Made by a program: the position numbers and the translations under genes
Origin: Myxococcota bacterium
Lineage (GTDB): Bacteria; Myxococcota_A; Polyangia; Polyangiales; Houyiibacteriaceae
Length of the DNA: 60,857 nucleotides
Assembly: GCA_039186435.1 (NCBI GenBank)
Contig: JBCDAA010000003.1
Span: 1 to 60,857, forward strand
Direction: 5' to 3'
The notes under the pieces: model-generated
Seen by the model: the letters and a program-made list of their open reading frames with translations, nothing else
What the model was told of the DNA's origin: nothing
The model's database searches: none
Part shown: piece by piece, positions 24,777 to 56,632 of the stretch
How the letters are laid out: every line of letters starts with the position of its first letter
Position numbering within the stretch: the first letter of the stretch is position 1

Positions 24777-26333
24777 ATGAATGCGTTCGCCGCGTTCGAT
24801 CCCGCATGGATCGTGCACCAGGATTCACACGTTCTCGTGCTGAACAAACCGGCGGGGGTGCCGTGCATGGCGCCCCGGCAAGGAATCGTCGATGACCTTC
24901 CCTCCCGCGCATCGAAGGCGCTCGGGCAAACGCTCAAGGTGCACCAGCGTCTCGACGCGGCGACCTCGGGGTTGATCGTCTACAGCCTTTCGGATGCCGC
25001 CACGCGCAGCCTTGCAGCGCAGTTTGAATCGCGCTCCGTGAAGAAGCGTTACCTCGTCGCGGCGAACTGGCGCGGCAACGGGCGGGTCCTCGACGGTCGT
25101 CTCGATGGGAAGAAGGCGCGTACGGAGGTGGAGGTACTCTCGCGCCGGGGAGACCGCGCGCTTCTCTCCGCGACCATCGAGACCGGGCGCCGCCATCAGA
25201 TCCGGCGCCACCTCGCCGATGCGGGAGCGCCAGTGGCAGGCGATCTTCGTTACGGCGGACCGCCGGCGCCGCACCTTCTGCTCCAGAGCGAGACCCTCGA
25301 GATCCACCAAGGCCGCTGGTCCCTTCCGGCGCTTCCGGTGTTCGATCACTGGCTCGAGGGGGAGGATTCAACGCCCCTCGACGAGGTTGGCGCGCTCGAA
25401 ACGCGTCTTCGCGGCGCGGCGCAGCAGCGGTACTGGCTCAGCCAAACGTCGACCACCTGTTTTCGTCTCGCCAACGGGGAGGGCGACGGTCTCCGCGGCT
25501 TCGCGGTGGACGTCTACGGCGATCACTTCGTGCTGCACCTCTACGACGAAGGAAGCAAGCACGAGGAGACGATCCTCGACGCGCTGATGCGCCTTGGACC
25601 GGGGGGCATCTACGTCAAGCGGCGTCCCCGTCAGGCGAACGAGTTGGTCGAGGCCGGTGAGCGCGCGCCTGCGGGGCCTCTTCGTGGTGTGCCGGCGCCC
25701 GATCCGCTGATCGTCCACGAGGAAGACGTCGCGTACTCAGTACGTCTCGGGGATGGGCTGAGCACGGGGCTCTTTCTCGATCAACGAGACGCGCGCCGTC
25801 GAGTTCGTGAGAGCGCCAAGGGAAAAAGTGTTCTGAACCTCTTCGCGTATACAGGCGGGTTTTCGATCGCTGCGGCGGTCGGCGGCGCGAATCGCGTTGC
25901 GAGTGTGGACGCGTCGAAGGGCGCTCTCGCGCGGGCGGAAGCCGCGATGCATACGCTCGGCTTCGCGGACCACGAAACCTGGCGGCACGACTGCTTCGAT
26001 GCGCTTGCGATTCTCAAGAAGCGCGGCGACCGTTTTGACATCGTCGTCGCCGATCCGCCGACCTATTCGCGGGTGAAGAAGAAGCGTTGGACGTCGGGGA
26101 AAGACTGGACCCGTCTCGCAGAGGCGTGCTTTCACGTTTGTGAGCGGGGAGCGACGCTTCTGCTGAGCAGCAACGACAGCCGCATGAGTGCCAGAGCCTT
26201 TCGCCGCTTTGTGCACGAAGGAGCGCGCCGCGCGAACGTGGAGATTCAGTCCCTTCGGGATCTTCCCGACCCGCCCGACTTTCCCGCGCGGGAGGCGGCG
26301 CTCAAGCGTCTGTGGGTGACACTTCTTCCGTGA
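24777..26333 (+). CDS. Fusion of an RluA-family pseudouridine synthase and an RlmI/RlmK-type SAM methyltransferase
   Basis: LNKPAG, HQRLDAATSG, TGRRHQIR.HL...G.PVAGD.RYG, then GEGDG...VD.YG, STGLFLDQR, VLNLFAYTGGFS, and DPPTY. Confidence 0.85.
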   Translation: MNAFAAFDPAWIVHQDSHVLVLNKPAGVPCMAPRQGIVDDLPSRASKALGQTLKVHQRLDAATSGLIVYSLSDAATRSLAAQFESRSVKKRYLVAANWRGNGRVLDGRLDGKKARTEVEVLSRRGDRALLSATIETGRRHQIRRHLADAGAPVAGDLRYGGPPAPHLLLQSETLEIHQGRWSLPALPVFDHWLEGEDSTPLDEVGALETRLRGAAQQRYWLSQTSTTCFRLANGEGDGLRGFAVDVYGDHFVLHLYDEGSKHEETILDALMRLGPGGIYVKRRPRQANELVEAGERAPAGPLRGVPAPDPLIVHEEDVAYSVRLGDGLSTGLFLDQRDARRRVRESAKGKSVLNLFAYTGGFSIAAAVGGANRVASVDASKGALARAEAAMHTLGFADHETWRHDCFDALAILKKRGDRFDIVVADPPTYSRVKKKRWTSGKDWTRLAEACFHVCERGATLLLSSNDSRMSARAFRRFVHEGARRANVEIQSLRDLPDPPDFPAREAALKRLWVTLLP

Positions 26334-29780: not shown

Positions 29781-30341
29781 ATGAGTCGCAACGACGACGT
29801 CGCGCGGGCCCTTCGGGATGCCGCGAGCCAGCTTCTGACCATTCATGGGCCGACAGGGCTTTCGGTTCGCGCGGTGGCGACCGCGGCAGGCCAGACGACG
29901 ATGGCGGTCTACAGCCGCTTTGGCGGCAAGGCAGGCTTGCTCGATGCGCTCTATCAAGAGGGCTTCGGCGTGCTGGCCGATGCCCAAGCGGCGGTTCCGG
30001 AGAGCGAGGATCCGCTTCGGGATCTGGAAAAGCTCCTCATGCGCTATCGGCACACTGCGCTCGTTCATGCTGCGCACTACGCGCTGATGTTCGGCGGCAA
30101 AGGGTTCACGCCTTCAGACGCGAGTCGACAGGTGGCGTGGTCGACCTTTGAGCATCTCGCGGGGCGGGTGAAGCGCTGTCAGGATGCAGCGCAGCTTGCG
30201 CCGGGCGATCCCCTGAAGATTGCGCACGCGATTTTCGCGCTCTGTCACGGACTGGTCGCCGTGGAGATGGAGGGGATGGCGGAAGGTGCGGACGCATACC
30301 GCGAAGCCGTGCGCGCGCTCCTTCGCGGGTTCGCGCCATAA
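29781..30341 (+). CDS. TetR/AcrR regulator with a WHG-type C-terminal domain
   Basis: HTH LSVRAVATAAG..TMAVYSRFGGK, YALMFG, and FALCHGLV. Confidence 0.9.
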   Translation: MSRNDDVARALRDAASQLLTIHGPTGLSVRAVATAAGQTTMAVYSRFGGKAGLLDALYQEGFGVLADAQAAVPESEDPLRDLEKLLMRYRHTALVHAAHYALMFGGKGFTPSDASRQVAWSTFEHLAGRVKRCQDAAQLAPGDPLKIAHAIFALCHGLVAVEMEGMAEGADAYREAVRALLRGFAP

Positions 30342-30372
30342 CCCGATGCTACGCTCGAGGCGCCGTTTTCAT

Positions 30373-30633
30373 ATGCCCAGTCCATTTCGCAAGGCCGCTC
30401 ATGTTCCGAACGCAAACGCGGACGCGAACGACGCCATCGACGAAGCGATCGCTGCGTCTCGGTCTCGCCGATTGCAGGAGCAGCGACGCGTGTTGCGACG
30501 AAGGGTGATCGGTTCCGTTCTGGCGTGCGGCGCGTTGGTGGGACTCGGCCTGACCTTCTCCTTGGGAACCGGCGAAACCCTTGCCGTTGCATTGCTCGGT
30601 GGCGTCTTCTTCCTCCTCTATTCCCACCGATGA
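30373..30633 (+). CDS. Small 2-TM hypothetical protein, paralogue of the next gene
   Basis: MPSPFR...PNANADANDAIDEAIAAS followed by an Arg-rich stretch and two TM helices. Confidence 0.6.
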   Translation: MPSPFRKAAHVPNANADANDAIDEAIAASRSRRLQEQRRVLRRRVIGSVLACGALVGLGLTFSLGTGETLAVALLGGVFFLLYSHR

Positions 30634-30714
30634 GACACGGATCGGAATAACCATACGGCGTCCGATTTAGTGACGGCATCGCTCGCGGGTGAAGGCGTAA
30701 AGAAAGCGTCAGGC

Positions 30715-31278
30715 ATGAGCAGCCCTTTTCGTCAGCCGGCTTCGGCACCGAACGCGAACACGGAAGCAAACGACGCGATCGACGAAGCGATCGCCGCGTC
30801 CAAGGCCCGTCGTCGAAGGTCGCGGCGGCGAGCCCTGGTGGGAAAGGTGATCGCCGCCGTTCTCGTTTGCACGGCGCTGGTTGGGTTCGGCTTCACTTCG
30901 GGCGGCACCGCCTGGGCCGGGGTAGTTGCGGTAGCGATTCTAGGGGTCCTCTTCGTGCTGGTCTTTCACGGGCGTGACGATCCGGGACGCAGTGTCGATC
31001 CCGTCGCTGGGTGGGCCCAATCGGCGTACGACGCGCCTCCGCGGCCGGAGGAACCCGTGCGCTCTCGAAACGCGCGAAGGGCCGTTCTCGTGTGTTTGGC
31101 AGGCTGCGCCAACACGGGGTGGTTTCTTGCGGCGGGAACGATCAACGAACGGTCGATCGAGGAAGCACCGTTGCACGATGTCCTGCTGGGGGCCGGTTTT
31201 TCGTTCGTGTTCGGGGTGTTCTTCGCCGCAGTCTTTGGTGGCCTTGCGCTCGCGCTCTTGAAGAGAGTGAAGCGCTAG
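30715..31278 (+). CDS. Multi-TM hypothetical protein
   Basis: MSSPFR...PNANTEANDAIDEAIAAS followed by an Arg-rich stretch and about four TM helices. Confidence 0.6.
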   Translation: MSSPFRQPASAPNANTEANDAIDEAIAASKARRRRSRRRALVGKVIAAVLVCTALVGFGFTSGGTAWAGVVAVAILGVLFVLVFHGRDDPGRSVDPVAGWAQSAYDAPPRPEEPVRSRNARRAVLVCLAGCANTGWFLAAGTINERSIEEAPLHDVLLGAGFSFVFGVFFAAVFGGLALALLKRVKR

Positions 31279-31703
31279 ACGGAGGCGTCGCTTCCAGCGT
31301 CCGCGGCTGCGTCGCTGGCCGCATCGGCCCCGGTGTCCGCAGGAGCGTCCATCGCGGCGTCTTCCATTGCGGCGTCTTCCGTTGCTGCGTCTTCGGCAGC
31401 GTCTTCCGTTGCTGCGTCTTCGGCAGCGTCGACGGTCGCGTCTTCGACTGCAGCGTCTTCCCCGGCGTCAAATCCGCTGTCGAAACCGGCGTCGAATCCG
31501 CTGTCGAACCCGGCGTCAAAAGGAACGCATTCGCAGGCGGCGAAGTTGCCGTTGGGCATGCAGGTTTGCTCCCCGCGACATCCTCCCGGCCCAGCGCAGA
31601 TTTGACGGTCCCCGGTGTTGCATCGGACGGCGCCGCCTCCGTCGTCGTCTCCGCAGCCAATGCAAGCAAGCGCCGCGAGTGCGGCTATCCAAAGCGAACG
31701 CAT
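31275..31703 (-). CDS. Small Cys-rich lipoprotein with a D/A/E repeat tail
   Basis: MRSLWIAALAALACIGC, CNTGDRQIC.GPGGC.G.QTC...C.C, and FD(A/S)G and EDAA repeats. Confidence 0.7.
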   Translation of the reverse strand: MRSLWIAALAALACIGCGDDDGGGAVRCNTGDRQICAGPGGCRGEQTCMPNGNFAACECVPFDAGFDSGFDAGFDSGFDAGEDAAVEDATVDAAEDAATEDAAEDAATEDAAMEDAAMDAPADTGADAASDAAADAGSDASV

Positions 31704-31734
31704 GCAGTAGCCATACCCCGCGGTGGCGGTGATG

Positions 31735-31935
31735 TCAGGCAATCCGCGCAAGGACGGCGCGCGCGGTGCTGCTGAGCCCCTCCGGGTCGAGCGCCGCTTC
31801 GAACTCCCGCTGTCGCAGGGCACGTGCGTGGGCCTCGCGCCGCTCCTCCTCCGAAAGGTCGTACCAGGCGGCGTGATAGCGCAGTCCGCCCGCGCGATAC
31901 GCGCCCGCGACCTCTTCGATCAACTCGTCGTTCAT
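31735..31935 (-). CDS. Small hypothetical protein coupled to the ECF sigma gene
   Basis: ATGA overlap with the sigma stop. 66 aa, MNDELIEEVAGAYR...EAALDPEGLSSTARAVLARIA. Confidence 0.65.
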   Translation of the reverse strand: MNDELIEEVAGAYRAGGLRYHAAWYDLSEEERREAHARALRQREFEAALDPEGLSSTARAVLARIA

Positions 31936-32483
31936 GACCAGGCCTCTCGGAGTTCCACGCCGTACTTTCGAAGACACGCTTCGAGGAGCTTTCGTGCGCG
32001 GGTGAGGTTCTGCAGGAAGGTGTTCTTCTTCATGCCGAGGCGCGCGGCGGTTGTGAAGTCTGCTTCGCCGCCGGCCGCTTCCATGCGTGCGTTCAGCGCG
32101 GCCTTGGGTTTGGGGGGCAGCTTTTCTCGGCAGCGCACGATCGTTTCGCGCAGGAGCGGGTCAGGCTCATGCGCCACAGCGGCCGGGTCCTCCGTGAGGG
32201 AGGCCGGTTCCTTTCCGCGCCGGCGCAGCTCGCTGATGCAGAGGTTTCGACCGATGCGATGTCCGAGACGCAGCAGTCCGTTTTCCCGGCCGTCCGCTTG
32301 GAAGCGCGGAGCGACCTGCCACACGCGGAGAAGTGTTTCTTGAAGAACGGCTTCGACGTCGACCTGCGCGGCGAAACGCCCGAGGCTTCGGCGGAGCGGA
32401 GGCTCCGCGTCGGCCATCCAGCGCGCGAAGCTCTGGCTGTCCCCGGATGCGATCGCCGGCAGGTAGACGTCGAGGTTCTTCAT
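31932..32483 (-). CDS. ECF-subfamily RNA polymerase sigma factor
   Basis: GDSQSFARW, region 2 DVEAVLQETLLRVW...RNLCISELRR, and region 4 LPPK...AARLGM...TRARKLL. Confidence 0.85.
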   Translation of the reverse strand: MKNLDVYLPAIASGDSQSFARWMADAEPPLRRSLGRFAAQVDVEAVLQETLLRVWQVAPRFQADGRENGLLRLGHRIGRNLCISELRRRGKEPASLTEDPAAVAHEPDPLLRETIVRCREKLPPKPKAALNARMEAAGGEADFTTAARLGMKKNTFLQNLTRARKLLEACLRKYGVELREAWS

Positions 32484-34951
32484 CGACCCGTCGCGAGCGA
32501 GAGAATCTCCGAGACGGCGGCGCGGCGAAGGGAGCCGACGTCGGCGTCGACGTGCAGCTTCTTTGTGCGCTTCGGGGCGTTCACGCCGAGCCCAAGGAAA
32601 AGCCAGTTCCCGGAGCGTTTGAGCTCCTCCTCGGTGAAGTCGCCGACGCCCGCCTCGATCGTGAGGTTGACCTCTGCGGTCGAGAGCGTCGCGATCGCGG
32701 CGCGAAGCTCTTCGAGAGCGGCCGCGTTTCGTGCCCGAAGGAGGATGTGCAGCTCGATCGGCTTCGCTTTGACGTCGGCTCCGAGTCGGCGACTCGCCTC
32801 TGAGGCTTCGCCGATAGAGAGCATGGTGTCTTCGGACGCGCCGCGCTTTGTCAGCGCCATCAGAAGATCGTGGACCTTGATGCGCAGGATGGCAGCGAGT
32901 TCGCGGACCTTCATCGGGCGATGGATTTCGACCTTCTTCTTCTTGGTTTGCTTCAGCTTCCGGCGGGTCGGCTTCTTAGGGACTGGGGGCATCGACGGTG
33001 CCCCTACGCCACCTTCGCGACGAGGTACGGGCGCCCGGCGCCGACGACCGCGGCTCTGAGGAGCAGGCATAGATGCTGGCGCCGGCGCGGACATCGGGGC
33101 CCGCATCTCGCGCAGGACGCCGGTCTGCGTGACCGCTCGCGAGGCGCGCCGAAGCCCGAGGCCTTCGATCGAGATCCCGGCCGGAAGCGCGTGCGGCATC
33201 GCCACGCGCCGCTTCGGGTCACTCGCCCCGACGGTCGCTTCCTTCGTTGCGGCAATCCACGAGGTGAGACGGGTCGCAATCGAAAACGCGAGGCCTGTCT
33301 CTTCGATGGCCTTGTCCTGCGGTGAGCCCGCCGCCGTCTGCATTTCGAGGTCCGCTACCTTTTCGCGCCCGAAGCGCGTGACGACTCCCATCGATCCTGC
33401 GCCGAGCGTAAGCGCAGGAACCTCGAGCTCTCGCTCGAAGCGGCCCGTCGCCGTGCGTCCCTCGATCCGAAGCGTGCCGCCTTCCTGACGCAGCCGAAGC
33501 GAAATGGACGCCGGGCCTGCCGCGAAAAGATCGGGAAGCTGGGTCGGTGCGGTTTCGACAAGCGCACTCCCGCTCACCGTGACCTCCGTGACGATGGGTG
33601 CGCGGGTGTGGGCCACCAAGCGCGCGGCGGCGCGTTCCGCGTCTTCCCCAAGACCGACGATGAGCTCCGCGCCTTTGCCCGCGCGAGCCGCGTGCTGCGT
33701 CAGCGTTCGGTTCGGTGCCGAGCTCACGCCGAGCGTGTGCAGCCGAACCCCGGCTGGCAGCGAACTCATCAGCGTCGAAACGATCTGCTGCTCGAAGCCG
33801 ATGTAGCCGTCGGTCATGAGAACGATCTGGCGCTGCGCATCATCCCGAAGCGGCCGAAGGGCCTCGAGAAGCGCGGCGTGCATCTCGGTGCCGCCGCCCG
33901 CGCGAAGGGACTGGACCCACTCCGAGGCGGAGGCTTTCCCGTCCTTGGTCGCGACGATCGCTTCGGGACGAAAGCGCTGCGGCCGGGACGAGAACGCGAT
34001 CATCTCGATGCGGTCACTCGGGCTCAACGTATCGATGAGTGCGAGAGCCACGCGCTTCACCTGATCTAGGGGACGTCCGCCCATCGAGCCGCTGATGTCG
34101 AGGAGCAGTAGAAGATCGCGCGGCGTCGACGTCATGGCCACGCGAGGCGGAACCAATGAAAGCAGACCAAAGGTGTCGCCGGAATGGGCAGCGTCGCTGG
34201 GCCGTGCAAGCGTGAGCTTCGCGCCCACTTCCGGAGCGCGTCCTTCCCAACGAACGACCACGTCACGATCGAGCGCGGCGTTTTCGAAGCGAACTTCGGC
34301 ACGCTCGCCCTGGCGCTTGCTACTCGTGCGATGAGACGGCGATTCGATGGCCGCGTCTTCGGGTAGCGATGCGATGGCAAGGGCGAGGCTCGTGCGGGTG
34401 CCGATGTCGCGATCGGCGATGTCGACGGTGAGTTTGGCGGAGTCCGAGACGCCGGCGCTTTGATAGCGAGGCGCGACGACGGTGGGAAAGCGCCATTCCC
34501 AGCGACCGTCGGCGAGCCAGCGGAGCGGCTGGTCGATGACGATCTCTGCGACGACCTCTTCGCCGGGCGGAATGTTTCCGATCTCTTGCGTGAAGAGGCT
34601 CGTTCGATCTTCTTCGACAAGCGCCGCGGTGCGTCCTTCGGCGAGGGCGACTTCGAAACGCTCGCGGGCGCTTGCCCGGCGATCGACTTCGCCGACAATG
34701 CGGCGCTCCCCGATCTGAAAGGAAAAGGCGCTGACGGCTCCGTCGGAGGGAAGCGGCAGTAGATAGGTGACGTGAAGCGGTTCAGCGTGCGGATTGCGAA
34801 AGCGCTGCGTCAGCGTGACGCGAGCGAGGCTGCCGGTGGCTTCGGCGTCGAGATGCGTGCTCGTTAGGGGGAGCGTGCCTTGGGCGGTGACGAGGCGGCC
34901 ACCGGACGAGTTCGGATTCGCGGGGGTGAGAGGTGTGGTGGATAGGTTCAT
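32480..34951 (-). CDS. VIT + vWA domain protein with an IF2-like C-terminal extension
   Basis: RBS AAGGAG before ATG 34951. VIT (Q.F.NP...Y.LPLP.DGAV, F...IGNIPPG), MIDAS DISGSM, GGGT and MTDG. The C-terminus resembles IF2. Confidence 0.88.
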   Translation of the reverse strand: MNLSTTPLTPANPNSSGGRLVTAQGTLPLTSTHLDAEATGSLARVTLTQRFRNPHAEPLHVTYLLPLPSDGAVSAFSFQIGERRIVGEVDRRASARERFEVALAEGRTAALVEEDRTSLFTQEIGNIPPGEEVVAEIVIDQPLRWLADGRWEWRFPTVVAPRYQSAGVSDSAKLTVDIADRDIGTRTSLALAIASLPEDAAIESPSHRTSSKRQGERAEVRFENAALDRDVVVRWEGRAPEVGAKLTLARPSDAAHSGDTFGLLSLVPPRVAMTSTPRDLLLLLDISGSMGGRPLDQVKRVALALIDTLSPSDRIEMIAFSSRPQRFRPEAIVATKDGKASASEWVQSLRAGGGTEMHAALLEALRPLRDDAQRQIVLMTDGYIGFEQQIVSTLMSSLPAGVRLHTLGVSSAPNRTLTQHAARAGKGAELIVGLGEDAERAAARLVAHTRAPIVTEVTVSGSALVETAPTQLPDLFAAGPASISLRLRQEGGTLRIEGRTATGRFERELEVPALTLGAGSMGVVTRFGREKVADLEMQTAAGSPQDKAIEETGLAFSIATRLTSWIAATKEATVGASDPKRRVAMPHALPAGISIEGLGLRRASRAVTQTGVLREMRAPMSAPAPASMPAPQSRGRRRRAPVPRREGGVGAPSMPPVPKKPTRRKLKQTKKKKVEIHRPMKVRELAAILRIKVHDLLMALTKRGASEDTMLSIGEASEASRRLGADVKAKPIELHILLRARNAAALEELRAAIATLSTAEVNLTIEAGVGDFTEEELKRSGNWLFLGLGVNAPKRTKKLHVDADVGSLRRAAVSEILSLATGR

Positions 34952-34987
34952 GGTGGGCTCCTTGCGTTGGAATGGGTTCACCCCGTC

Positions 34988-35013
34988 AACGCAAGGGCAG
35001 GGCGCTGGTGACA
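34988..35013 (-). promoter_or_regulatory. Candidate ECF sigma promoter for the VIT-vWA/ECF operon
   Basis: Minus strand TGTCAC-N16-CGTT, about 37 bp upstream of ATG 34951. Confidence 0.45.
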
Positions 35014-35102
35014 AAGAAAATCACGAATCGGCATCTACCCGAAATCACAGACTCAATTTCCAACCCCGCGCTCGAGCCCCTCGGGATGAACCGAGGCTGA
35101 AC

Positions 35103-35331
35103 CGAGGCCATCCACAAGTTTTGACACCTGAACCGCGGCTCCAAGGCGGCCAAAGTCGAGGCCATCCACGTTTTTTGACAGTGGTTTTCTGCGAACTCGA
35201 TAGCGGCTCTAGGGCGGCCGAAGTCGAGTGGTTTTCTGCTAACTCGATCGTGGTGGACGCGTGCCCCCTTCGAAGACCCGTCCAAGAGCGGCCATGGACG
35301 AACGCGATGTCAAAAACTGTGGATGGCCTCG
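35103..35331. repeat. REPIN/MITE-like element (family member 1)
   Basis: CGAGGCCATCCAC..TTTTGACA at 35103-35126 and 35157-35180, with an inverted copy at 35308-35331. Confidence 0.75.
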
Positions 35332-35466
35332 ACCGGCTCATGGCCTCTCGGCACCCAGGACGCTGAAATCACTCGCGATCTTTCGCCTTCTGCAGCGGTC
35401 CTTGAGGATTCTTTCAGCAACGTTTCCAAGCCTTTACACCGAAGTAAAATCAGCTACCTTCACGGC

Positions 35467-37179
35467 GTGACTCGGATTGGGGTTACTAATGGGGCGTTGG
35501 GGCGCTCCTTAGGGCTGGTGCTGCTCTTCGGAGGCATCGCAGAGGCGCAGTCCGTCCCCGAAGACACTGCCGTCGCGACGCCTGCCGAAGCGCCCGAGGC
35601 GCCGGCTGAGGTCGAGCAGGCTGAAGCCGACACAGACGCCACCAACGCAAACACCACCAACACAAACGCCACCGACCCAAGCACAACCGACGCAAACGTC
35701 GCGATCGACGACACCTCGACGAATCAACGCCCCTGGTGGAGCGGAAATCAGCCGGACGGGGTCGCCCGTTCCACGGCCGCGCCGAGCTCCCAGCGCGCTG
35801 ATGAGCCAACCCCAGCCGCCGACGCCGCGGACAGCGAGCCCGAAGACGAAGACGACACGCGCCCCGTCGAGTCCGGCTTCGCGTTTGGCTCCTACGGTCG
35901 TCTCGTGGCGGCGAGCAACCTCGATGGCGGTCTTGGCCGCACCGCGAACATCGTCGCCTTCGCACCGCGCATCGACGAAGACGTCTACATGGAGCTCGAG
36001 CTTCGCCGCACCGACGTGTGGACCGGCGGGCTTCGGAGCCGCGTTGTTGCGACCGTCGCCTTCGGCGGCCCCTTCTTTCACCTCGACGGGAACTTCGACG
36101 AGAGCATCGCCGTTCGCAACCTCTACGCGGCGGTCGAAAACGCGTTGGTCGACGGCCTTGAGCTGTGGGCCGGTTCGCGCATGTGGCGCGGCGACGACGT
36201 CTACCTTTTGAACTTCTGGCCTCTCGACAACATCAACGCCCTCGGCGGCGGCGCTACCTATCGCTGGGACGCTGCGGAAGACGGCTTTGGCCTCGACGTC
36301 GCGACAGTCGTCGGCCTCACACGCCTCGATGATCCCTTTCAGCGCCAGGTCGACGGAGCGATTCCCATCGACGGGTTTTTGCCGGCGGACGTCGTCGTCC
36401 TCGATCGCCCTCGAACGACTCTCGGACTCAAAGTCACGGGCTACCCCTTCGGTCGTCGGGCGCGTACCGGACTGAAGTTCATCCTCTACGGCGAAGGCCA
36501 CTTCATTGCGGAGGGGACCCGCGAGGTAGAGGTCGGCGTAACCGAGCGACTGCCGCAGGACGGCGGCTACGTGCTCGGCGGCCAAATCGGCGGGTGGATG
36601 GCCGACAGCAACACCTTCATCAACCTGTTCTTTAAGTGGGGACGCGGCCTCGGCGCCTACAACCCCCTCGGCGTTCCCTTTCGCGAGGGTCGCGTTCAGG
36701 ACACGGAGCGCGCCCGCGAGATCTTGATTGCGCTGAGCGCCAACTACGAGACCGGGCCCTTCGGGCTTCAGCTCGGCGCGTACTACCGAAACTTTCGCGA
36801 CGCGGACCCCAGCCTCTTCGAGCGAACGCGTCTTGCCGAAGGCGTCGTGAATGTGCGCCCGCACGTTTGGATCGGACAGCGCGCGGGCCTTTCCTGGGAC
36901 CTCAGCTACCAGGCGCTGCAGGCCAATCAGCTCGACGAACGCACCGGCCAGGTCGTGCGCGGCGGCGTGACCAAGCTCGGGTTTATCCCCTTCTACTCCC
37001 CCTTCGGTCGCGGCACCTACACGCGACCTCACCTACGTTTGATCTATTCGCTGACGCTTCGGGACGCCGACGCGCAGCGCCTTTATCCTGAAGACGATCC
37101 TCGTTCACGTACCAAGGTCGAGCATTTCCTCGGCATCGGTGCGGAGTGGTGGTTCGACAGCAGCAGTTACGGACAGTGA
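35467..37179 (+). CDS. Carbohydrate porin (LamB/maltoporin-like)
   Basis: Signal peptide (AEA|Q), low-complexity linker, F.FGSYGR, Y.ELE, RNLYA, W.GSRMWRGDD.YL...WPLD, and terminal GAEWWF. Coupled to the amylase. Start uncertain. Confidence 0.75.
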   Translation: MTRIGVTNGALGRSLGLVLLFGGIAEAQSVPEDTAVATPAEAPEAPAEVEQAEADTDATNANTTNTNATDPSTTDANVAIDDTSTNQRPWWSGNQPDGVARSTAAPSSQRADEPTPAADAADSEPEDEDDTRPVESGFAFGSYGRLVAASNLDGGLGRTANIVAFAPRIDEDVYMELELRRTDVWTGGLRSRVVATVAFGGPFFHLDGNFDESIAVRNLYAAVENALVDGLELWAGSRMWRGDDVYLLNFWPLDNINALGGGATYRWDAAEDGFGLDVATVVGLTRLDDPFQRQVDGAIPIDGFLPADVVVLDRPRTTLGLKVTGYPFGRRARTGLKFILYGEGHFIAEGTREVEVGVTERLPQDGGYVLGGQIGGWMADSNTFINLFFKWGRGLGAYNPLGVPFREGRVQDTERAREILIALSANYETGPFGLQLGAYYRNFRDADPSLFERTRLAEGVVNVRPHVWIGQRAGLSWDLSYQALQANQLDERTGQVVRGGVTKLGFIPFYSPFGRGTYTRPHLRLIYSLTLRDADAQRLYPEDDPRSRTKVEHFLGIGAEWWFDSSSYGQ

Positions 37180-38960
37180 TGAAGAACGCCTCGACGATAG
37201 TTGCGCTTGCGCTCGTGATGGCCTGTGTCGACGGCGACGTGTCGGAGATCGAGTTCACGGTCGACACGCACGTCGAGGATTGGCGCGACGAAGTGATCTA
37301 CCAGCTGATGGTGGATCGCTTCGCGAATGGAAACGCGGGTAACGATTTTCGCCTCGACCCCAACCCGCTCTCGCTCGGACGTTTCAAGGGTGGCGACTGG
37401 CAGGGCGTCATCGACCAGCTCGACTACCTCGAAGAGCTCGGCGTGACGACGCTGTGGATCAGTCCGATCATTCGCAATGTCGACACCGACGCGGGCTTCG
37501 ACGGCTATCACGGCTATTGGGCGCAGCACCTCGAGCGTGTGAACCCACACTTCGGGGATCTCGCGACGCTGCGGCGCATGGTTGACGAATGCCACGCGCG
37601 CGACATCAAGGTGGTTCTCGACATCGTGACCAACCACCTCGGGCAGGTCTATTTCTACGACGTCAACATGAACGGACGGCCCGACGAGTTCCTCTCGGGC
37701 GGCTTTCCGACAAACCCGGGCGACCCGCAGGCGCCGCCCGGAAGTCCGGTGACGCGCATCACCGAGTTCGATCCGGACTACGACCCGCGAGGCGTGCAGG
37801 CGATCACCTCCCTCGGCGAAGCGGGTCCGGCGCCGGTGCGCTTTTTCGATCTGCCCGAGATCTTTCGCGTCCCGCCGGAGCCGGCGGTCTTTCAGCGGCC
37901 GGAGTCCTACAACCGGCGCGGCAAAGTCACCGATTGGGGAAGTCGTGAGCAGGTGGTGCTTGGCGACTTTCCGGGTGGTCTGAAAGACATCGATACCACC
38001 AACCTCGAGGTGCGCGACGAGATGGTGCGCGTCTACTCCGACTGGGTGCTCAAGCTCGACCTCGACGGCTTTCGCATCGATACGATCAAGCATGTGGAGC
38101 ACGAGTTTTGGCAGGACTTTTCTCGGCGCGTGCGTGAGCGGGTGGCGGTCGGCGGTAAGACGAACTTCCTGATGTTCGGGGAAGCGTTCGACGGGGACGA
38201 CGTGCTGGTTGGTAGCTACACCTTTCCCGGCGAGCTCGATTCGGTCTTCTACTTCCCGCAGAAGTTTCAGGTCTTCGACAACGTCTTCGCGGACGGTGGC
38301 GCGACGTCGGCGGTGCAGCGGCTCTTCGATGCGCGCGCGTCGAACTACGGCACCGAAGCGCAGCCGGGTGGCATTGGCATTGCGCCGACGTCCGCGCTCG
38401 TAAACTTCATCGACAACCACGACGTGCCGCGCTTTCTTTGGCGGCAGCCCGACGCGCGAGCGCTGCGTGCGGCCCTCGGATTTCTTCTTACCGAAGAGGG
38501 GATCCCGTGCATCTACTACGGGACCGAGCAGGATTTTAATGGCGGCAACGATCCGGGGAATCGTGAGCCGCTCTGGTGGAGCGACTACCGCACGGACGGC
38601 GAGACCTTTCGCTGGATCGCGCGTTTGAATCGCGTGCGTGCGCGCTACGCACCCCTTCGACGCGGCGACATGGTCTTTCGCTGGACAACGGATCGCACGG
38701 GCGATGCCGTCGACGCCGGCATCCTTGCGTTCGAGCGCACCATTGGCGAAGAGCGCGCCCTGGTGGTGATCAACGCGCAGGGAGCGCACGCCAGCCGAAC
38801 GAGCTTCGAGGGCACCGCGATGAGCGTGGGAATGAGCGGCGCGATCGTCGATGTGCTCAGCGGTGATCGATTCACGGTCGACGCAGGAACTTTGGACGTT
38901 GAGGTTGGGCCTTTCGGCGTTCGGATTTTTGTGCCCGAAGCGCAATTCGTCGCCGAGTGA
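37179..38960 (+). CDS. GH13 alpha-amylase-family lipoprotein
   Basis: Lipobox VMAC, YHGYW, and conserved regions DIVTNH, DGFRIDTIKH, GEAF, FIDNHD, plus GIPCIYYGTEQ. Confidence 0.93.
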   Translation: MKNASTIVALALVMACVDGDVSEIEFTVDTHVEDWRDEVIYQLMVDRFANGNAGNDFRLDPNPLSLGRFKGGDWQGVIDQLDYLEELGVTTLWISPIIRNVDTDAGFDGYHGYWAQHLERVNPHFGDLATLRRMVDECHARDIKVVLDIVTNHLGQVYFYDVNMNGRPDEFLSGGFPTNPGDPQAPPGSPVTRITEFDPDYDPRGVQAITSLGEAGPAPVRFFDLPEIFRVPPEPAVFQRPESYNRRGKVTDWGSREQVVLGDFPGGLKDIDTTNLEVRDEMVRVYSDWVLKLDLDGFRIDTIKHVEHEFWQDFSRRVRERVAVGGKTNFLMFGEAFDGDDVLVGSYTFPGELDSVFYFPQKFQVFDNVFADGGATSAVQRLFDARASNYGTEAQPGGIGIAPTSALVNFIDNHDVPRFLWRQPDARALRAALGFLLTEEGIPCIYYGTEQDFNGGNDPGNREPLWWSDYRTDGETFRWIARLNRVRARYAPLRRGDMVFRWTTDRTGDAVDAGILAFERTIGEERALVVINAQGAHASRTSFEGTAMSVGMSGAIVDVLSGDRFTVDAGTLDVEVGPFGVRIFVPEAQFVAE

Positions 38961-50778: not shown

Positions 50779-51213
50779 ATGAGCATGCAGAAGTTGACCG
50801 TGTTCGTGTTGTTCGCCTCTGCGGTCACCGGGTGTGGTCAGTCCCGCGTTCGGTCCGATGCCGGCGGGGAAGACGCGCGGCCGCGTCCCGACGCGCGGTC
50901 TCTCGACGCGACGTTTCGCGACGTACCCGACCCACGCTGCCCGCCCGCGCTTCCAGAGGATCTCTCGGTCTGCGACGCATCGATGATGGAACCCTGCGTA
51001 TACCTGATCTGCGACGGTGCCATCGAAGCGTCCGTGAGCTGTCGCGCGGACGGTCTCTGGGCTTCGAGGCCTCCTCTTTGTCCGGGTGAGGTTTGTCAGC
51101 AACGAGAACGCTGCTCGACCGAAGGCGCGCGGTGCTCGAGTGGTGAATGCGGGCCAATCCTCGTTTGCGAGGGAGGCGAGCTAGTCGCGCTCTTTGCGAG
51201 CGACTGCGACTAG
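50779..51213 (+). CDS. Small Cys-rich lipoprotein
   Basis: Lipobox VTGC, a D/A linker, then a Cys-rich domain (CP..LP.....C.....C.Y..C.......C..DG.W). Confidence 0.7.
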   Translation: MSMQKLTVFVLFASAVTGCGQSRVRSDAGGEDARPRPDARSLDATFRDVPDPRCPPALPEDLSVCDASMMEPCVYLICDGAIEASVSCRADGLWASRPPLCPGEVCQQRERCSTEGARCSSGECGPILVCEGGELVALFASDCD

Positions 51214-51266
51214 GAGAAACGCGCGTTCGGCACCCAAGGAGTGCGTTCCGGGCTAGACTCCTGGGC

Positions 51267-53075
51267 GTGAAGGCGCTCATCAAGGTCGGCTATGCGTGCA
51301 ACGACCATTGCGGCTTCTGCCACACCCTTCACGTGCGTCATATCGATGGCAGCGCGGACGAGGTGCATCGCAAGATCGAACGCGCGAAGGAGCTCGGACA
51401 CAGCATGGTGGTGCTGAGCGGTGGTGAACCCACCATTCGCCCTGAGCTTACTGAGTGGGCCGCGCACGTCGCGTCCCTCGACATGGACTTCGGTCTCGTC
51501 ACCAACGGCCGCATGCTCGCGTACCCCGACGTCGTCGAGACGTTGCTCAAGCATCGCCTTCGCTACGTCTATCTTTCGCTCCACGGTGGGAGCGCGAAGG
51601 TGCACAACCTCATGGTGCGTTCGCAGGCGTTTGAGGAGACCTACGGCGCGCTGGCCAACCTCACCGGGCGCGGTATCGATCTTCACGTGAACTGTGTGAT
51701 CACGCGCCACAACATGGATCACCTCCGGCCGCTGGTGGACTCGGTGCTTCCCTACGAGGACGCGTCGGTGAAGTTCTCGATGGTCGAGCCCAAGGGCGGC
51801 GGCGACGTCCTCTTTCGAAACCTCATGCCTCGCGTGAGCGACGTGGCCAAGAGGGTGGCGGACGCTCTCGCCTACGCGCGCGAGAAAACAGCGGGGCGGC
51901 CAGGACCACGCTTCGCCCACGGTGCAATTCCGCTCTGTCTCCTGCCGGGGGAGGAGAGCGGCTTCGATGATCTGAAGACCCACCAGTACTGGACGATGAT
52001 CGAGGTCGGGGAGTCGGACTTCTTTCCCGTCGACGACCTCAACAAAGTTCACCCCGCGCGGTGCGAGGGCTGCGCGCTCAAAGGCCCCTGTCCCGGGCTC
52101 TACCGCGGCTACCACGAGACCTTCGGCGACGAGGAGCTCAAGCCGGTGCGCGAAGGCGTGCGGAGCAACTCCTTCAACTACACCCTCGAGCGCGTCGTTC
52201 GAAGCGACCTGCCGTGCCCGCTTCGCGACGGGGCGCTCGGCATCACGCCGTGGGATCGGGGACGGCATCTCATCGTGCGCAACGGCGAGCGAGTCGGGAT
52301 CTATCGCGCGCCAACCCGTGACTTTTCGGACGCGGAGATCGCCGCCCTCAAACACGACGTCGGCCAGGTCTACGTCGACGCGTCACGTGGCAAGCCTGCG
52401 CCCGACGACTTCGCACGGGATCTCGTCAAGCTCCAGCGCGCGGGCGAGTGCGCTGGCTGTGAACACCAAGCCACCTGCAGCGGACTCTTCGAACCCGTGT
52501 TCGAGGATGTTTTCAGCCGCGACGATCAAGTCGTGCGCGCGCTTCTGGGATCCCTGGAAGGCGACGTTCTCGACATTGGCTGCGGCGAGGGCCCCTACGG
52601 CGATCTTCTCGGCGAACGCGTGCAAGCCGGCGCGCTCCGCTACGTCGGCATCGACCCCGATGCGCGGGCCATCCGCGGTCTTACCAAACGCTGGCCCTGG
52701 GCCGACCTGCACTGTGCGACGGCGGAGGACTTCGACCCCGGCCAGCAATTCGACCACGTCTTCATCCTACGAAGCTGGAACCACCTCTTCGATCCCGCCG
52801 GCTCCCTCGCGCGCGTCCGCGAATGGCTACGCCCCGGCGGCTGGCTCACCGTCGTCGACAACGTCGCCTTCGGCCTTGCCCGCACGGCGGCCCACACCTC
52901 TCGCGCCGAACGCTCCAGCGCTGAGCTCGAGCACCACCGCAACGACGACTCGGTCCAAGCCCGCAAAGTCGTGGAGGACGCCGGCTTCGAGGTTGTCCAG
53001 GAGATCGCGGTCGGGCCCGAGACCAGCAACCAGTGGCTCCTCCGCGGGCGGCCCGTCGACGAACGAGGCTCGTAG
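51267..53075 (+). CDS. Radical SAM (HxsC-like) plus class I methyltransferase fusion
   Basis: GTG at 51267, CNDHCGFC, SGGEPT, TNG, IPLC, two CxxC-x5-CxG motifs (CEGCALKGPCPG, CAGCEHQATCSG), VLDIGCGEG, and LRPGG. Confidence 0.85.
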   Translation: MKALIKVGYACNDHCGFCHTLHVRHIDGSADEVHRKIERAKELGHSMVVLSGGEPTIRPELTEWAAHVASLDMDFGLVTNGRMLAYPDVVETLLKHRLRYVYLSLHGGSAKVHNLMVRSQAFEETYGALANLTGRGIDLHVNCVITRHNMDHLRPLVDSVLPYEDASVKFSMVEPKGGGDVLFRNLMPRVSDVAKRVADALAYAREKTAGRPGPRFAHGAIPLCLLPGEESGFDDLKTHQYWTMIEVGESDFFPVDDLNKVHPARCEGCALKGPCPGLYRGYHETFGDEELKPVREGVRSNSFNYTLERVVRSDLPCPLRDGALGITPWDRGRHLIVRNGERVGIYRAPTRDFSDAEIAALKHDVGQVYVDASRGKPAPDDFARDLVKLQRAGECAGCEHQATCSGLFEPVFEDVFSRDDQVVRALLGSLEGDVLDIGCGEGPYGDLLGERVQAGALRYVGIDPDARAIRGLTKRWPWADLHCATAEDFDPGQQFDHVFILRSWNHLFDPAGSLARVREWLRPGGWLTVVDNVAFGLARTAAHTSRAERSSAELEHHRNDDSVQARKVVEDAGFEVVQEIAVGPETSNQWLLRGRPVDERGS

Positions 53076-53155
53076 AAAACCACCGTCAAAACTAATGGGT
53101 GGCCTCAACGCGTCGATGACGCTTCGCGCCTCGCTTCGCTCGGAGGTTCGCGAAC

Positions 53156-53848
53156 CTATTCACCACCAAACGCTTCACGCCGAAGCGCTTCGATCTGCGC
53201 CTCTCGGTCGCGATGCATCTTTTCGATGCGCCCCCGAAGCTCCTGGAGAATCCCCATCCGCTCCCCTTCCGGTGCGTTTGCCACCGCGCCCTCCTCACAG
53301 AGCTCGCCCGAACGCCGCACCTCCGACAACGTCCGCGACGCCGACGTCAGCGTGTGCGTCAGCACCCCCAAGAAGAGCAAGAGCGGGATCACCAGCGCGA
53401 GCAACCGAATCCACTTCGGCGCACCCACCCGCCGCGCGACGAAGGGCCCAGAGAGCAAGAGCAAGAGGATCACCCCGCCGATGGCTAGCCAATGGCCGTG
53501 GTGGTCGAGCGTCTCCTCCCACAAACTGCGCGCCGCCCCCTCCCGCTGGTCGTGGCAGAAGTCGCTCTCCACCAAACGCTCATGCTCGCGCTCGATCGCC
53601 TCGTTGAGCTCGTTGCCAAGCTCCTGGTTCAAGTCCACGTGCGAGACATCAAAGGGCTCGGCAGAGGTCCCCTCCGGAACCAGCGAAGGATCGGACACAA
53701 AGACCGTTCGGCCCTCGTCGTTCTCGTAGCTGTAGAACGCCGGACCGTCGGGTTCACCCCAACTCTCGAGCGGTGAGCCCGCACATCCCGCGACCCACAC
53801 CCAAAGCAGCGCCCACCAAGCCGAGCGAGATCGCGTGCGCCAGGACAT
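53156..53848 (-). CDS. Membrane lipoprotein with a DUF4124-like motif
   Basis: Lipobox VAGC, FYSYENDEGRTVFVSDP, and two TM helices. Confidence 0.6.
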   Translation of the reverse strand: MSWRTRSRSAWWALLWVWVAGCAGSPLESWGEPDGPAFYSYENDEGRTVFVSDPSLVPEGTSAEPFDVSHVDLNQELGNELNEAIEREHERLVESDFCHDQREGAARSLWEETLDHHGHWLAIGGVILLLLLSGPFVARRVGAPKWIRLLALVIPLLLFLGVLTHTLTSASRTLSEVRRSGELCEEGAVANAPEGERMGILQELRGRIEKMHRDREAQIEALRREAFGGE

Positions 53849-53974
53849 CCTCATTTCCTCCGGCCCAAGACGCGTCATCTCCGGCAGCCGTACCACGAAT
53901 TCGCTCTCTCGGACGCTCCTCCTTTTCGCGTCTCCGGTATGGTACCCACCTCGGTCCCGGTGTATTTTCCGCCT

Positions 53975-54460
53975 ATGAGCGACGACTTCGTCGGCGTGCC
54001 CGACGCGATCGCCCGTGCGGACCTCCGAGAGAGTTCCGCCGAGCTTTACCTAGACGACTCCCTATACCCCCTCGAAGCCGTGTACGGCGCGAGCTTTACC
54101 TTCATCGATCGCTGCTTCGTGTTTATCGACCGGCCGGAAGCCAACCGCTTTCGCGTGACCCTCTCGACCAAGAAGCCAGGCACCGAGGAAGACGTGCTTC
54201 GTACGCTGGTCGGCGAGTTTTCGAACGAGCTCCTCGCGTGCGCCTGGCGGGCGAAGATTACCGAGCAGAACCGCGCCACGTTGGAAGCTGTCACCATGCA
54301 AGCCATCGGCGGAGCTATGGGTCCGCCGAGCCTCGACGATCTCGAGGACTTCGACTTCTCCGAGGAACCCTTCGAAGACCCACTCGGTATCGCCATGAGT
54401 TGGGAAGAGAAATACGGCAAGAAGTCACCGCCCAAGAAAAAGAAGAAAGAAGAAGAATGA
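53975..54460 (+). CDS. hxsD: His-Xaa-Ser system protein HxsD
   Basis: LDDSLYPLEAVYGASFTFIDRC and GEFSNELL..AWRAKI...N, ending in DPLGIA.SWEEKY. First gene of the hxs operon. Confidence 0.8.
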   Translation: MSDDFVGVPDAIARADLRESSAELYLDDSLYPLEAVYGASFTFIDRCFVFIDRPEANRFRVTLSTKKPGTEEDVLRTLVGEFSNELLACAWRAKITEQNRATLEAVTMQAIGGAMGPPSLDDLEDFDFSEEPFEDPLGIAMSWEEKYGKKSPPKKKKKEEE

Positions 54461-54675
54461 GGGAGCTCCGATTTTCGAAGGAGATCTACCGCGGCGAGGA
54501 CGTCGACGCCGCGCTGAGGGTCTTCGAGAAATACGGTGACTTCGAACAGGAAGCGACCGACGACGCTTGGGTGATCCGCGTGAGCGCCGGCTCCCGCGCA
54601 AGAGAGCGCCGCCTCGCTGGCGAACTTGGCAACTACGCGCTTGGCCTTACGATTCGTCATCGGGGTGTCTCGTGA
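54457..54675 (+). CDS. Second, short HxsD-like protein
   Basis: ATGA overlap. MRELRFSKEIY....VDAA..F...GELGNYAL has the same pattern as the HxsD core. Overlaps the hxsB GTG start. Confidence 0.7.
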   Translation: MRELRFSKEIYRGEDVDAALRVFEKYGDFEQEATDDAWVIRVSAGSRARERRLAGELGNYALGLTIRHRGVS

Positions 54676-56192
54676 GCGCACAAGTCGATTTTGCAGCGTT
54701 GGGCCTTGAGCGACTTTCCTTTGACCACGCCGCACCCTTTCGGATGCGGAAACTGGGCGACAAAACCCTGCTCACGAGCGTCGCGGGGCGATACGCGCTT
54801 CTCGACGACGAAGAGCTCCGTGCATTCGCCACCGGTGCGATCAAGGAGGGCACGCCCCTCTATGAGACGCTGAGCGAAGCAAACCTACTTCGCGACACGT
54901 TCGACGTGCCCGCGGCTGCGCAGATGCTTCAAGCGCGGCGCGCGTTCGTGGGTGCTGGACCGAATCTGCACGTTTTCGTCGTGACGCTCCGCTGCAACAC
55001 GACGTGCGTTTACTGCCATGCGTCGCGCGCCAACATGGACGCTGTCCACACGGACATGACGCCTGCCGTCGCGGAGAAGTGCGTCGACTTCGTGCTCTCA
55101 TCGACCAACCCTGCGATCACGATTGAGTTCCAGGGCGGTGAACCGCTTGTCGCCTTCGACACGGTTAAGCACATCATCGAGTACGCTCTCGAGAAGAACA
55201 AAACCATCGGGAAGGAACTCGAGTTCACGATGGTCTCGAACCTTTCCTTGATGGATGAGGAAAAGCTCACGTACTTGCTCGAGCATCGCGTGCAGCTTTG
55301 CACCAGCATCGATGGTCCGCCGGACATCCACGACAAGGTTCGCAAGCTCCCCAAGGCCTACGGCGATAGCGGTCACGACCTCGCGGTGCAGTGGACCCGT
55401 CGAATCAACGAGCGGTACCGAGAGATGGGCCTTGACGAGACCCTCTACCATGTCGAAGCGCTCGTCACGACGACCCGCGGGCTCCTTCCGCGCTGGAAGG
55501 AGCTCGTCGACACCTACGTTGGCCTCGGGTGCCGGGCGCTCTTTCTGCGGCCGCTCGATCCCTTCGGCTTCGCGGATCGAACCGGCAAGCGCATCGAATA
55601 CCCGCGCGAGGAGTACCTCGAGTACTACCGCAACGCGGTCGAGTACATGATCGAGCTAAACCACCAGGGGGTGGAGATCCTCGAGCGCTACGCGGCCATC
55701 TTTCTGACGAAGATCCTTCGGGGCGAAGACCCCAACTTCCTCGACATTCGTCAGCCCGCCGGCGCGGGCATCGGGCAGCTCGCGTACAACTACGACGGGC
55801 AGATCTTCACCTGCGACGAAGGTCGTATGTTGCACGAGATGGGTGACGATGCGTTTCACCTCGGTCATGTGGACACGTCGTCCTACCGCGACATCGTCGG
55901 CCATCCGACCGTCCGCGCGGTGGTCATCGCGGGGCAGCTTCAGGGACTCCCTGACTGCACCGACTGTACGTACCAGCCCTACTGCGGCGTCCCGCCAGTT
56001 CACAGCCACAAGGTTCAGGGGACCATCTTCGGTCGGATGCGCGAGTCGACCCTTTGTCAGGTACACAAGGGCATCCAGGACTACCTCTTCGAGAAGATTG
56101 CGGAGGGCGATCCCAAGACTCTGGAGGTCTTTGAACGCTGGACGACCATTCGCCCGCGGGAGCACTTTCTTCACCCGCCGGGCGAAGAGTAG
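54672..56192 (+). CDS. hxsB: His-Xaa-Ser system radical SAM maturase HxsB
   Basis: N-terminal PFR.RKL..LLT..G, GPNLH.FVVTLRCNTTCVYCHAS, IEFQGGEP, CTSIDGP, GAGIGQLAYNYDG.IFTCDEGRM, and CTDCTYQPYCG. Confidence 0.9.
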   Translation: MSAQVDFAALGLERLSFDHAAPFRMRKLGDKTLLTSVAGRYALLDDEELRAFATGAIKEGTPLYETLSEANLLRDTFDVPAAAQMLQARRAFVGAGPNLHVFVVTLRCNTTCVYCHASRANMDAVHTDMTPAVAEKCVDFVLSSTNPAITIEFQGGEPLVAFDTVKHIIEYALEKNKTIGKELEFTMVSNLSLMDEEKLTYLLEHRVQLCTSIDGPPDIHDKVRKLPKAYGDSGHDLAVQWTRRINERYREMGLDETLYHVEALVTTTRGLLPRWKELVDTYVGLGCRALFLRPLDPFGFADRTGKRIEYPREEYLEYYRNAVEYMIELNHQGVEILERYAAIFLTKILRGEDPNFLDIRQPAGAGIGQLAYNYDGQIFTCDEGRMLHEMGDDAFHLGHVDTSSYRDIVGHPTVRAVVIAGQLQGLPDCTDCTYQPYCGVPPVHSHKVQGTIFGRMRESTLCQVHKGIQDYLFEKIAEGDPKTLEVFERWTTIRPREHFLHPPGEE

Positions 56193-56308
56193 TGATTTCA
56201 GGAGTTTGTCGTCTTTTCCGCGCGAACCCTCTCCGCCGAAAATTGCAGGCTCCCGGGAGTCCATCGCGTGACAAGAGCCCGCCGGGGAGGCTAAGATAGC
56301 CACATATC

Positions 56309-56626
56309 ATGGCGGATTCGGATCACCGAGACGACGATCAAGATCAAGACTGGGGCGACGACTTCGGCGACGAGCTTCCGAGCTTTGAGCGGGAAGCGGC
56401 GGGGTCCTTGAACGTCGAGGAAAAGGAAATGTCCGAACGTGCGCGCGCCAACGCGGACGAGGTGGACGCTTCCGGAAGCCAGCGCGGTGCACAGCACTGT
56501 TCGCACGGCTCCCATGGCTCGCACGGAAGCCACGGTTCGCACGGCAGTCACGGCTCGCACGGCAGTCACGGCTCGCACGGCAGCCACGGCTCGCACGGCA
56601 GCCACGGATCCCACGGCAGCTGGTAG
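56309..56626 (+). CDS. hxsA: His-Xaa-Ser repeat precursor peptide (HxsA-type)
   Basis: 62-aa acidic leader, then HCS, 13 x HGS and a terminal W. Lies between two radical SAM genes. Confidence 0.9.
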   Translation: MADSDHRDDDQDQDWGDDFGDELPSFEREAAGSLNVEEKEMSERARANADEVDASGSQRGAQHCSHGSHGSHGSHGSHGSHGSHGSHGSHGSHGSHGSHGSHGSW

Positions 56627-56632
56627 GCCCCG

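Follow-up and report, generated by a model that had tools for sequence, protein, structure and literature searches.

We found that the last ~200 residues of a VIT-vWA protein encoded by an uncultured marine Myxococcota bacterium are a GTPase-less derivative of translation initiation factor IF2, made up of a basic linker, an N2-type IF2_N domain and domain III (C1). The gene lies on contig JBCDAA010000003.1 (assembly GCA_039186435.1, positions 1 to 60,857); this single 60.9-kb contig is the whole stretch of DNA that was analysed and is called the window below. It belongs to a metagenome-assembled genome of 9.47 Mb (768 contigs, 93.9% complete, 7.6% contamination), the relatives of which are metagenome-assembled genomes of Polyangia/Myxococcota. 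The VIT-vWA gene opens a conserved Polyangia cassette of three genes, followed by genes for a sigma factor of the extracytoplasmic function (ECF) type and for a protein of 66-75 aa; the end of the VIT-vWA protein varies between relatives. Because some of these relatives carry a bare membrane anchor at the same place, we read the C-terminal module as an anchor or partner-recognition unit. That the IF2-like tail is such an anchoring or partner module, swapped in, is our favoured reading, with a probability of about 0.4. The gene and its parts are as follows.

32480..35014, minus strand: VIT-vWA open reading frame (ORF), 844 aa from a TTG start
33095..34951, minus strand: VIT-vWA core, residues 22-640 of the 844-aa ORF, counted from the ATG of the public gene call
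34538-34867, minus strand: VIT domain, residues 50-159 (Pfam)
33680-34117, minus strand: vWA domain, residues 300-445 (Pfam)
32933..33094, minus strand: Pro/Arg/Lys linker, residues 641-694 (54 residues, net charge +16)
32759-32932, minus strand: IF2_N-like domain, residues 695-752, closest to the pre-G-domain copy (N2) of IF2
32483-32758, minus strand: IF2 domain III (C1)-like domain, residues 753-844 (P0001), stopping where C2 would start

The public gene call begins at an ATG 21 codons inward of the TTG and gives 823 aa (P0004). Both N-terminal domains were assigned with scores above the Pfam gathering scores (VIT, PF08487, 102.6 bits against 26.5; vWA, PF00092, 55.8 bits against 23.8), and the metal ion-dependent adhesion site (MIDAS) of the vWA domain is intact, with the motif DISGS (DxSxS at residue 285 of P0004). 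The protein is cytoplasmic: no signal peptide or membrane segment was found in it, the maximum 19-residue hydropathy being 1.08. The linker contains PQSRGRRRR and RKLKQT, resembling the segment that precedes IF2_N in the genus's own IF2, and the IF2_N-like domain is joined directly to the C1-like domain.

The C1 half is clearly IF2-like. It matched the IF-2 profile TIGR00487 with E=2.2e-5 (profile positions 379-455 of 587), scoring 23.4 bits with the tail by itself and 17.2 bits with the entire protein where the family cut-off is 424.4 bits. PF11987 matched it with E=0.0014 and 18.9 bits, under the gathering score of 27, and across the whole 9.47-Mb genome this family was found at infB and at the tail only. 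A hidden Markov model (HMM) built from seven Polyangia IF2 sequences was run over 126,493 six-frame ORFs and gave the VIT-vWA ORF the best rank after infB (E=0.0098, against 6.3 for the next). Profile alignment by hhalign to the same seven sequences gave a probability of 83.8% (E=7.9e-6, 87 columns, 31% identity), and the Smith-Waterman score against the genome's own IF2 (83) was reached by none of 1000 shuffles. When the tail was searched against the sequences of the PDB, six of the eight weak matches were IF2. The ESM Atlas model of residues 746-843, from a 150-residue query, matched IF-2 domain clusters in all six matches listed, with template-modelling (TM) scores of 0.56-0.58. We also searched the genomes of 60 relatives: the best six-frame match of the tail lay inside infB in 39 of the 55 that had any match at E<=1, and a match inside infB was present in 48 of the 60. 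Because these genomes are kin, this is one comparison repeated. The motifs LST..V and GVG..TE are retained in C1, as is K..DLLM.L...G.S in IF2_N.

By sequence the IF2_N half is weaker than the C1 half. PF04760 matched it with E=0.11 and 12.7 bits (gathering score 25.3) and, genome-wide, ranked it third behind the two copies in infB (E=0.36). By hhalign it aligned at the correct place with E=0.0052 but a probability of only 6.9%; its Smith-Waterman score against the own IF2 was attained by 3 of 1000 shuffles, and a narrow IF2_N lineage HMM gave no significant match to it (E=20). The ESM Atlas model of residues 690-752 matched IF-2 proteins in 10 of the 10 matches listed, nine of them on the IF2_N domain, with TM scores of 0.81-0.86. 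Short stretches easily give high scores in this comparison, as the tool itself warns; a chance match is unlikely because the matches are unanimous and the domain adjoins C1. When the tail was compared with the own IF2 by plain BLASTP, nothing useful came out (best E=0.6, at wrong places). Taken together, the tail has a weak but consistent sequence signal, and both halves show clear matches at the level of predicted structure.

A first-pass annotation, made from the DNA letters alone, had described the tail as an IF2_N-like domain running directly into a domain III-like one. The ORF reads exactly as quoted there, and profiles, hhalign, Smith-Waterman and Atlas models all speak for that assignment. 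The Pfam families that it had predicted, PF04760 and PF11987, matched at the expected places, though both below their gathering scores; in the structural check that it had proposed, the Atlas models agreed with IF-2, while AlphaFold2 run on the tail without an alignment gave a mean confidence (pLDDT) of 46.2, too poor for a fold search. Its claim that the GTPase part is missing held good, since no match to the G domain (GTP_EFTU) or to domain II was found by Pfam anywhere in the 844-aa protein. GTP_EFTU was present in the genome's own infB and in IF2 paralogs of other genomes. The protein ends at the C1/C2 boundary, and a lineage HMM for C2 (domain IV) matched nothing on the contig. The sigma factor cassette and the exchangeable end, which we consider the most important part of the context, do not appear in that annotation.

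An assembly chimera or a frameshift could have fused an infB fragment to the VIT-vWA gene; the source is a bin of 768 contigs with 7.6% contamination, and the tail is known from a single record. We consider such an artefact extremely improbable. Positions 31700-34499 are contained in a 3099-nt Logan contig (depth 9.55) with 0 differences and at even depth; this contig takes in the vWA domain as well as linker, tail and sigma factor gene and so bridges the junction, which the first-pass annotation had proposed to check. It is a second assembly and not independent data, because it probably derives from the same source sample; the only sequencing run found to contain the stretch is labelled marine metagenome. 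The tail is not a misjoined infB read because it is only ~30% identical to the genome's infB, and the flanking core and sigma factor genes keep the gene order of their orthologs. No RNA run containing the stretch was found among the sequencing runs listed, and runs X2 and X3 hold 18-24-base scraps only. Further upstream in the gene (window positions 34470-35062), the second assembly branches and one 593-nt contig shows seven differences from the window, pointing to a co-occurring strain in which the N-terminal part of the VIT-vWA gene is variant.

We compared the C-termini of 16 family members with a readable end. Five end in a membrane anchor, seven in an Ig-like domain, three in an IF2 C2-like barrel and one, the protein described here, in IF2_N plus C1. 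The membrane-anchor type consists of basic residues, a single membrane helix and then a few to ~30 residues, with hydropathies of 2.14 and 2.63 in the two that were measured. The Ig-type tail (L036, L038-L040, L042, L043 and L025; alignment A5) is an all-beta domain of ~100 aa, predicted by AlphaFold2 with a pLDDT of 85.1, for which the best Foldseek match was FlaG/FlaF (TM 0.54). No Pfam family was found in the two of the seven Ig-type tails that were scanned, and a word search with this beta tail found only itself. An IF2-like identity was considered for it and rejected (hhalign E=0.39; generic Ig-like Foldseek matches, 0 at E<=0.001). The C2-type tail, found in a second genome of the same genus (G002) and in proteins P0008 and P0009, matched TIGR00487 at positions 511-578 (E=3.6e-7) and aligned by hhalign with a probability of 97.1% (E=6.6e-11); the next match in a database of 5.8 billion proteins was a genuine IF-2 (E=1.5e-5). 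The barrel of this clade is thus derived from IF2 domain IV/C2.

A maximum likelihood tree was built from the core with 14 rows, L035 and L040 having been dropped because the search motif did not pick them up. The protein with the IF2_N-C1 tail (G000) was sister to the C2 clade with a support of 86/85, and the membrane-anchored protein G015 fell outside (100/99). In another part of the tree, the Ig-like L036 was sister to the membrane-anchored L041 (100/99). The C2-tailed sister proteins have an orthologous core (62-64% identity), the same cassette, and an IF2-derived end that comes after a basic linker, as in G000. They differ in that C2 stands after an acidic linker without IF2_N and C1, so that G000 holds the complementary pieces: the end of the G000 tail and the start of the G002 barrel coincide at the C1/C2 boundary of IF2.

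The tail is collinear with the genome's own IF2. The linker and IF2_N correspond to IF2 residues 285-347 and C1 to residues 693-791, and ~345 residues between the aligned stretches are missing (G domain, domain II and flanking linkers). Of the two IF2_N copies in the own IF2, the tail's domain aligned to the one ahead of the G domain, the second (residues 315-347), and not to the first. The linker motif PQSRGxRR...RK.KQT was found in the IF2 of all three genomes of the genus, in the form RPQSRGxRR...RKPKQTE ahead of the pre-G IF2_N domain, and in none of seven other Polyangia IF2. The linker alone did not align significantly to the own IF2 (44 of 1000 shuffles attained its score); linker and IF2_N in order were matched by 0 of 1000. 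The earlier proposal that the domains were captured from infB is supported by this collinearity, by the linker motif of the genus and by the complementary C2 of the sister clade. The most economical account is that the lineage's own infB was captured once, without its G domain and domain II, and that reciprocal loss came after. An ancestor of the genus-level clade would have fused such an infB copy (IF2_N-C1-C2) to the VIT-vWA protein, after which the G000 lineage would have kept IF2_N-C1 and the sister lineage C2. The fusion is not recent, because synonymous sites differ and the identity of the tail to the own IF2 is about 26-30%.

The tails have lost IF2 invariant motifs and evolve fast. This bears on a rival view, in which the tail goes back to a chance fusion of a partial infB duplicate and is now a near-neutral remnant in decay, serving at most as a generic cap or spacer that is folded but lacks any specific partner. 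The IF2_N-C1 tail being a singleton, the lost invariant motifs and the fast evolution of the related C2 tail all fit such a remnant. So does the pattern of losses: each IF2 piece is dispensable somewhere, because the sister clade lost IF2_N-C1 and the G000 lineage lost C2. On the other side, the frame has stayed open for 150 codons with a codon-position GC pattern as in infB (0.70/0.45/0.80 in the tail, 0.70/0.46/0.80 in infB; the tail also resembles the core in this respect), the predicted folds of both domains still match those in IF2, and the stop codon still overlaps the start of the sigma factor gene. Three proteins still carry the C2 tail, which in the pair P0008/P0009 is better conserved than the linker preceding it (54.8% against 41.7% identity). 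We regard a mere remnant as rather doubtful.

The position of the IF2_N match also bears on a link to NusA. On this reading the IF2_N fold would bind NusA, and the VIT-vWA protein would in that way sit on elongating RNA polymerase beside the sigma factor. The nusA gene of the genome, just upstream of infB, has an acidic-repeat-like TIGR01954 match (E=7.8e-10, 42.4 bits; cut-off 48.15). In the published work (PMC12297416), however, the NusA interaction concerns N1 of E. coli IF2 and is shown for that domain only, while the tail domain aligns to the pre-G copy, and both C1 and the C2 of the sister clade would be left unexplained. We judge this link very unlikely.

The other two genes of the cassette are as follows.

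31932..32483, minus strand: gene of an ECF-type sigma factor of 183 aa, in translational coupling with the VIT-vWA gene
31735..31935, minus strand: small conserved protein, 66 aa (relatives 66-75 aa; alignment A4)

The stop codon of the VIT-vWA gene overlaps the ATG of the sigma factor gene (ATGA), and the sigma factor stop overlaps the ATG of the small protein in the same way (ATGA). The sigma factor gene scored 23.2 bits against Sigma70_r2 (gathering score 24; its G002 ortholog 25.8 bits) and also matched TIGR02989 (E=4e-12) and TIGR02937 (31.5 bits, cut-off 42.9), both below the cut-offs. Of 14 loci, 13 have it downstream of the VIT-vWA gene, the search pattern finding none in L041, and the small protein was found in 11. 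No Pfam or NCBIfam family matched the small protein; an FF domain was considered, and the profile match (E=0.011) was too weak to be reliable. In complex predictions it was placed between sigma regions 2 and 4 with a score of 0.92, the best of three controls reaching 0.00, and the runs agreed in at least 91% of contacts with a partner pLDDT of at least 88. Of 157 solved complexes 116 attain the score mark applied, as do 2 of 215 mismatched pairs; these counts hold only roughly because our own alignments were used. On these models the small protein is likely a soluble anti-sigma factor, and it is a candidate for a new family of small soluble anti-sigma factors. The VIT-vWA protein is read as an accessory or sensor of this sigma system.

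A promoter of the GGAAC...CGT type recognised by ECF sigma factors was not found upstream in the eight loci in which the gene start could be located (six loci were unlocated). A sigma-70 promoter scan of positions 31100-35400 gave 0 sites, and terminator-like sites in the same interval were not above chance.

If the tail is an anchoring or partner module, a 30S or RNA tether would be the most concrete mechanism, given the +16 linker. A 2026 preprint (bioRxiv 10.64898/2026.06.26.734871) describes the N2 domain of IF2 as docked in the minor groove of 16S h16, where it stabilises IF2 on the 30S subunit. The second IF2_N copy of the genome aligns to E. coli IF2 residues 306-365, within N2, and by analogy the IF2_N copy in the tail may place the VIT-vWA protein on 30S subunits. 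Of the two roles suggested in the first-pass annotation, a ribosome/RNA tether and a decoy, the first gains indirect support from this correspondence. The module would then most likely hold the protein on the small ribosomal subunit or on an IF2 partner and not at the membrane. Tethering would run through the basic linker and the N2-like domain, as N2 in IF2 appears to dock on h16 independently of the G domain, and the sigma/anti-sigma switch would thereby be tied to the translation-initiation apparatus. The vWA part might act on the switch by capturing an acidic residue of the small anti-sigma factor in its MIDAS site. A bolder form of this scheme has the IF2 remnant docking the switch on the initiating 30S subunit at h16, such that transcription by the ECF sigma factor would read out, or interfere with, translation initiation, and the C2 and IF2_N-C1 tails would be the halves of an ancestral VIT-vWA-IF2(delta G) fusion. 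This form strikes us as speculative and on the whole improbable.

Several observations weigh against an anchoring or partner function. The lost invariant positions count against canonical IF2-like contacts: of the positions invariant over seven Polyangia IF2, the tail keeps 11 of 34 in IF2_N and 15 of 45 in C1, and the KADVQGS block of C1 is gone. The C2-type tail has lost the RRFKDDV block, which we take to belong to the fMet-tRNA site. The identity of this tail between P0008 and P0009 is 54.8% where that of the core is 87.2%, which fits weak constraint. A 'ribosome' function shared by both tails is not obvious, because the sister clade keeps only C2, with no h16 contact. The clade on which a single capture depends has moderate support (86/85), with 2 of the 16 sequences not in the tree, and the IF2_N-C1 tail is a singleton in all collections searched. 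Finally, the success of the sigma/anti-sigma prediction may be partly model memory, because such complexes are solved.

The same rapid divergence of C2 relative to the core could instead mark an integrated decoy, in which the IF2-like piece would be a bait for a phage protein or toxin, and the VIT-vWA part would sense the attack and free the sigma factor. C-terminal modules swapped between close relatives, and different pieces of one target protein shown by sister lineages, would agree with this. A bait, however, should retain the conserved surface of its target, and only the minority of invariant positions given above is left. No PADLOC defence model matched any of the four cassette proteins (0 of 4), and most relatives bear a plain membrane anchor or an Ig-like domain. 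The remaining genes of the window are ordinary chromosomal ones, with no phage or defence island among them. We therefore think a decoy unlikely.

Two further features flank the cassette.

31275..31703, minus strand: Cys-rich putative lipoprotein with Asp/Ala repeats, downstream of the small protein, with no family match
35323..37179, plus strand: LamB-type porin gene, divergent to the cassette and followed by an alpha-amylase gene (pair 35323-38957)

The LamB-type porin is a neighbour in G002 and G015 as well; this adjacency is probably shared gene order and not part of the system. Elsewhere in the window, two tandem paralogous ORFs (30220-30633 and 30670-31278, both plus strand) share an N-terminal ...ANDAIDEAIAAS... 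followed by a hydrophobic stretch, and no reliable family match was found for either. Positions 51147-58172 (plus strand) hold a cluster of three radical SAM genes, one of them fused to a methyltransferase, plus a histidine phosphatase; inside it lies a 105-aa ORF with collagen-like Gly-X-Y repeats (56309-56623). This is possibly a peptide-modification cluster. At 24777-26330 (plus strand), a pseudouridine synthase domain and an S-adenosylmethionine-dependent methyltransferase domain are encoded in a single ORF.

The architecture appears to be without a described precedent. A word-indexed search of 5.8 billion clustered proteins with the IF2_N-C1 tail found the query itself only, no such tail was found elsewhere in the 60 relatives' genomes, and no relative of it was found in JGI metagenome contigs. 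A phmmer search over 1.84 billion representatives returned two matches, both repetitive Ig-like proteins aligned in 4-7 stretches, which were judged spurious. Nothing relevant on a VIT-vWA protein with IF2_N or C1 was found in the literature searched, and the first-pass annotation's remark that it knew of no such protein agrees with all of these searches. A second PF11987 match was seen in 21 of 300 other class-level genomes. The five of these 21 that were checked as possible GTPase-less tails proved to be full-length IF2 paralogs; a second full-length IF2 with an intact G domain was thus recorded in L062-L066 (G183, G236, G266, G307, G108), all Myxococcota. Giant VIT-vWA paralogs, in which a PQQ propeller is combined with VIT and vWA, belong to a different family.

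To our knowledge, and in our searches, IF2 domains occur only inside GTPases of the IF2/eIF5B type. Here, freed from the GTPase, they have been recruited to form the end of a signalling protein. Should this end still dock on the 30S subunit, a sigma factor system would be physically tied to translation initiation. Even without docking, the family offers a clean natural case of swapped end modules, be they membrane anchor, Ig-like domain or IF2 pieces, and a reciprocal partition of a captured housekeeping gene, and it defines an uncharacterised Polyangia cassette of a VIT-vWA protein, an ECF sigma factor and a new small predicted anti-sigma factor.

Three known systems invite comparison. One is ECF289, for which Casas-Pastor et al. 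2021 (PMC7826278) describe an anti-sigma factor with DUF3520 fused to a von Willebrand domain; the term 'VIT' is absent from the main text of that paper. As there, a vWA protein is encoded beside an ECF sigma factor. Compared with ECF289 as described in that source, the vWA protein of our cassette carries a VIT domain and no anti-sigma domain that could be recognised, and its gene stands upstream of the sigma factor gene; the predicted sigma binder is a separate 66-aa protein. With the marine proteobacterial sortase target TIGR03788, a secreted VIT-vWA protein, the VIT domain, the vWA domain and the region following them can be aligned (376.1 bits over residues 53-623, below the cut-off of 551.65), whereas our protein has no signal peptide, C-terminal sorting signal or membrane segment. 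IF2 itself (InfB; TIGR00487) shares with the tail two folds (N2/IF2_N and domain III/C1) in the same order. It differs in possessing the G domain, domain II, C2 and the KADVQGS block, and in being encoded in a nusA-infB operon, whereas the tail stands on a VIT-vWA protein in a sigma cassette. In our view this is a signalling protein altered by domain shuffling, for which IF2 is an unusual donor.

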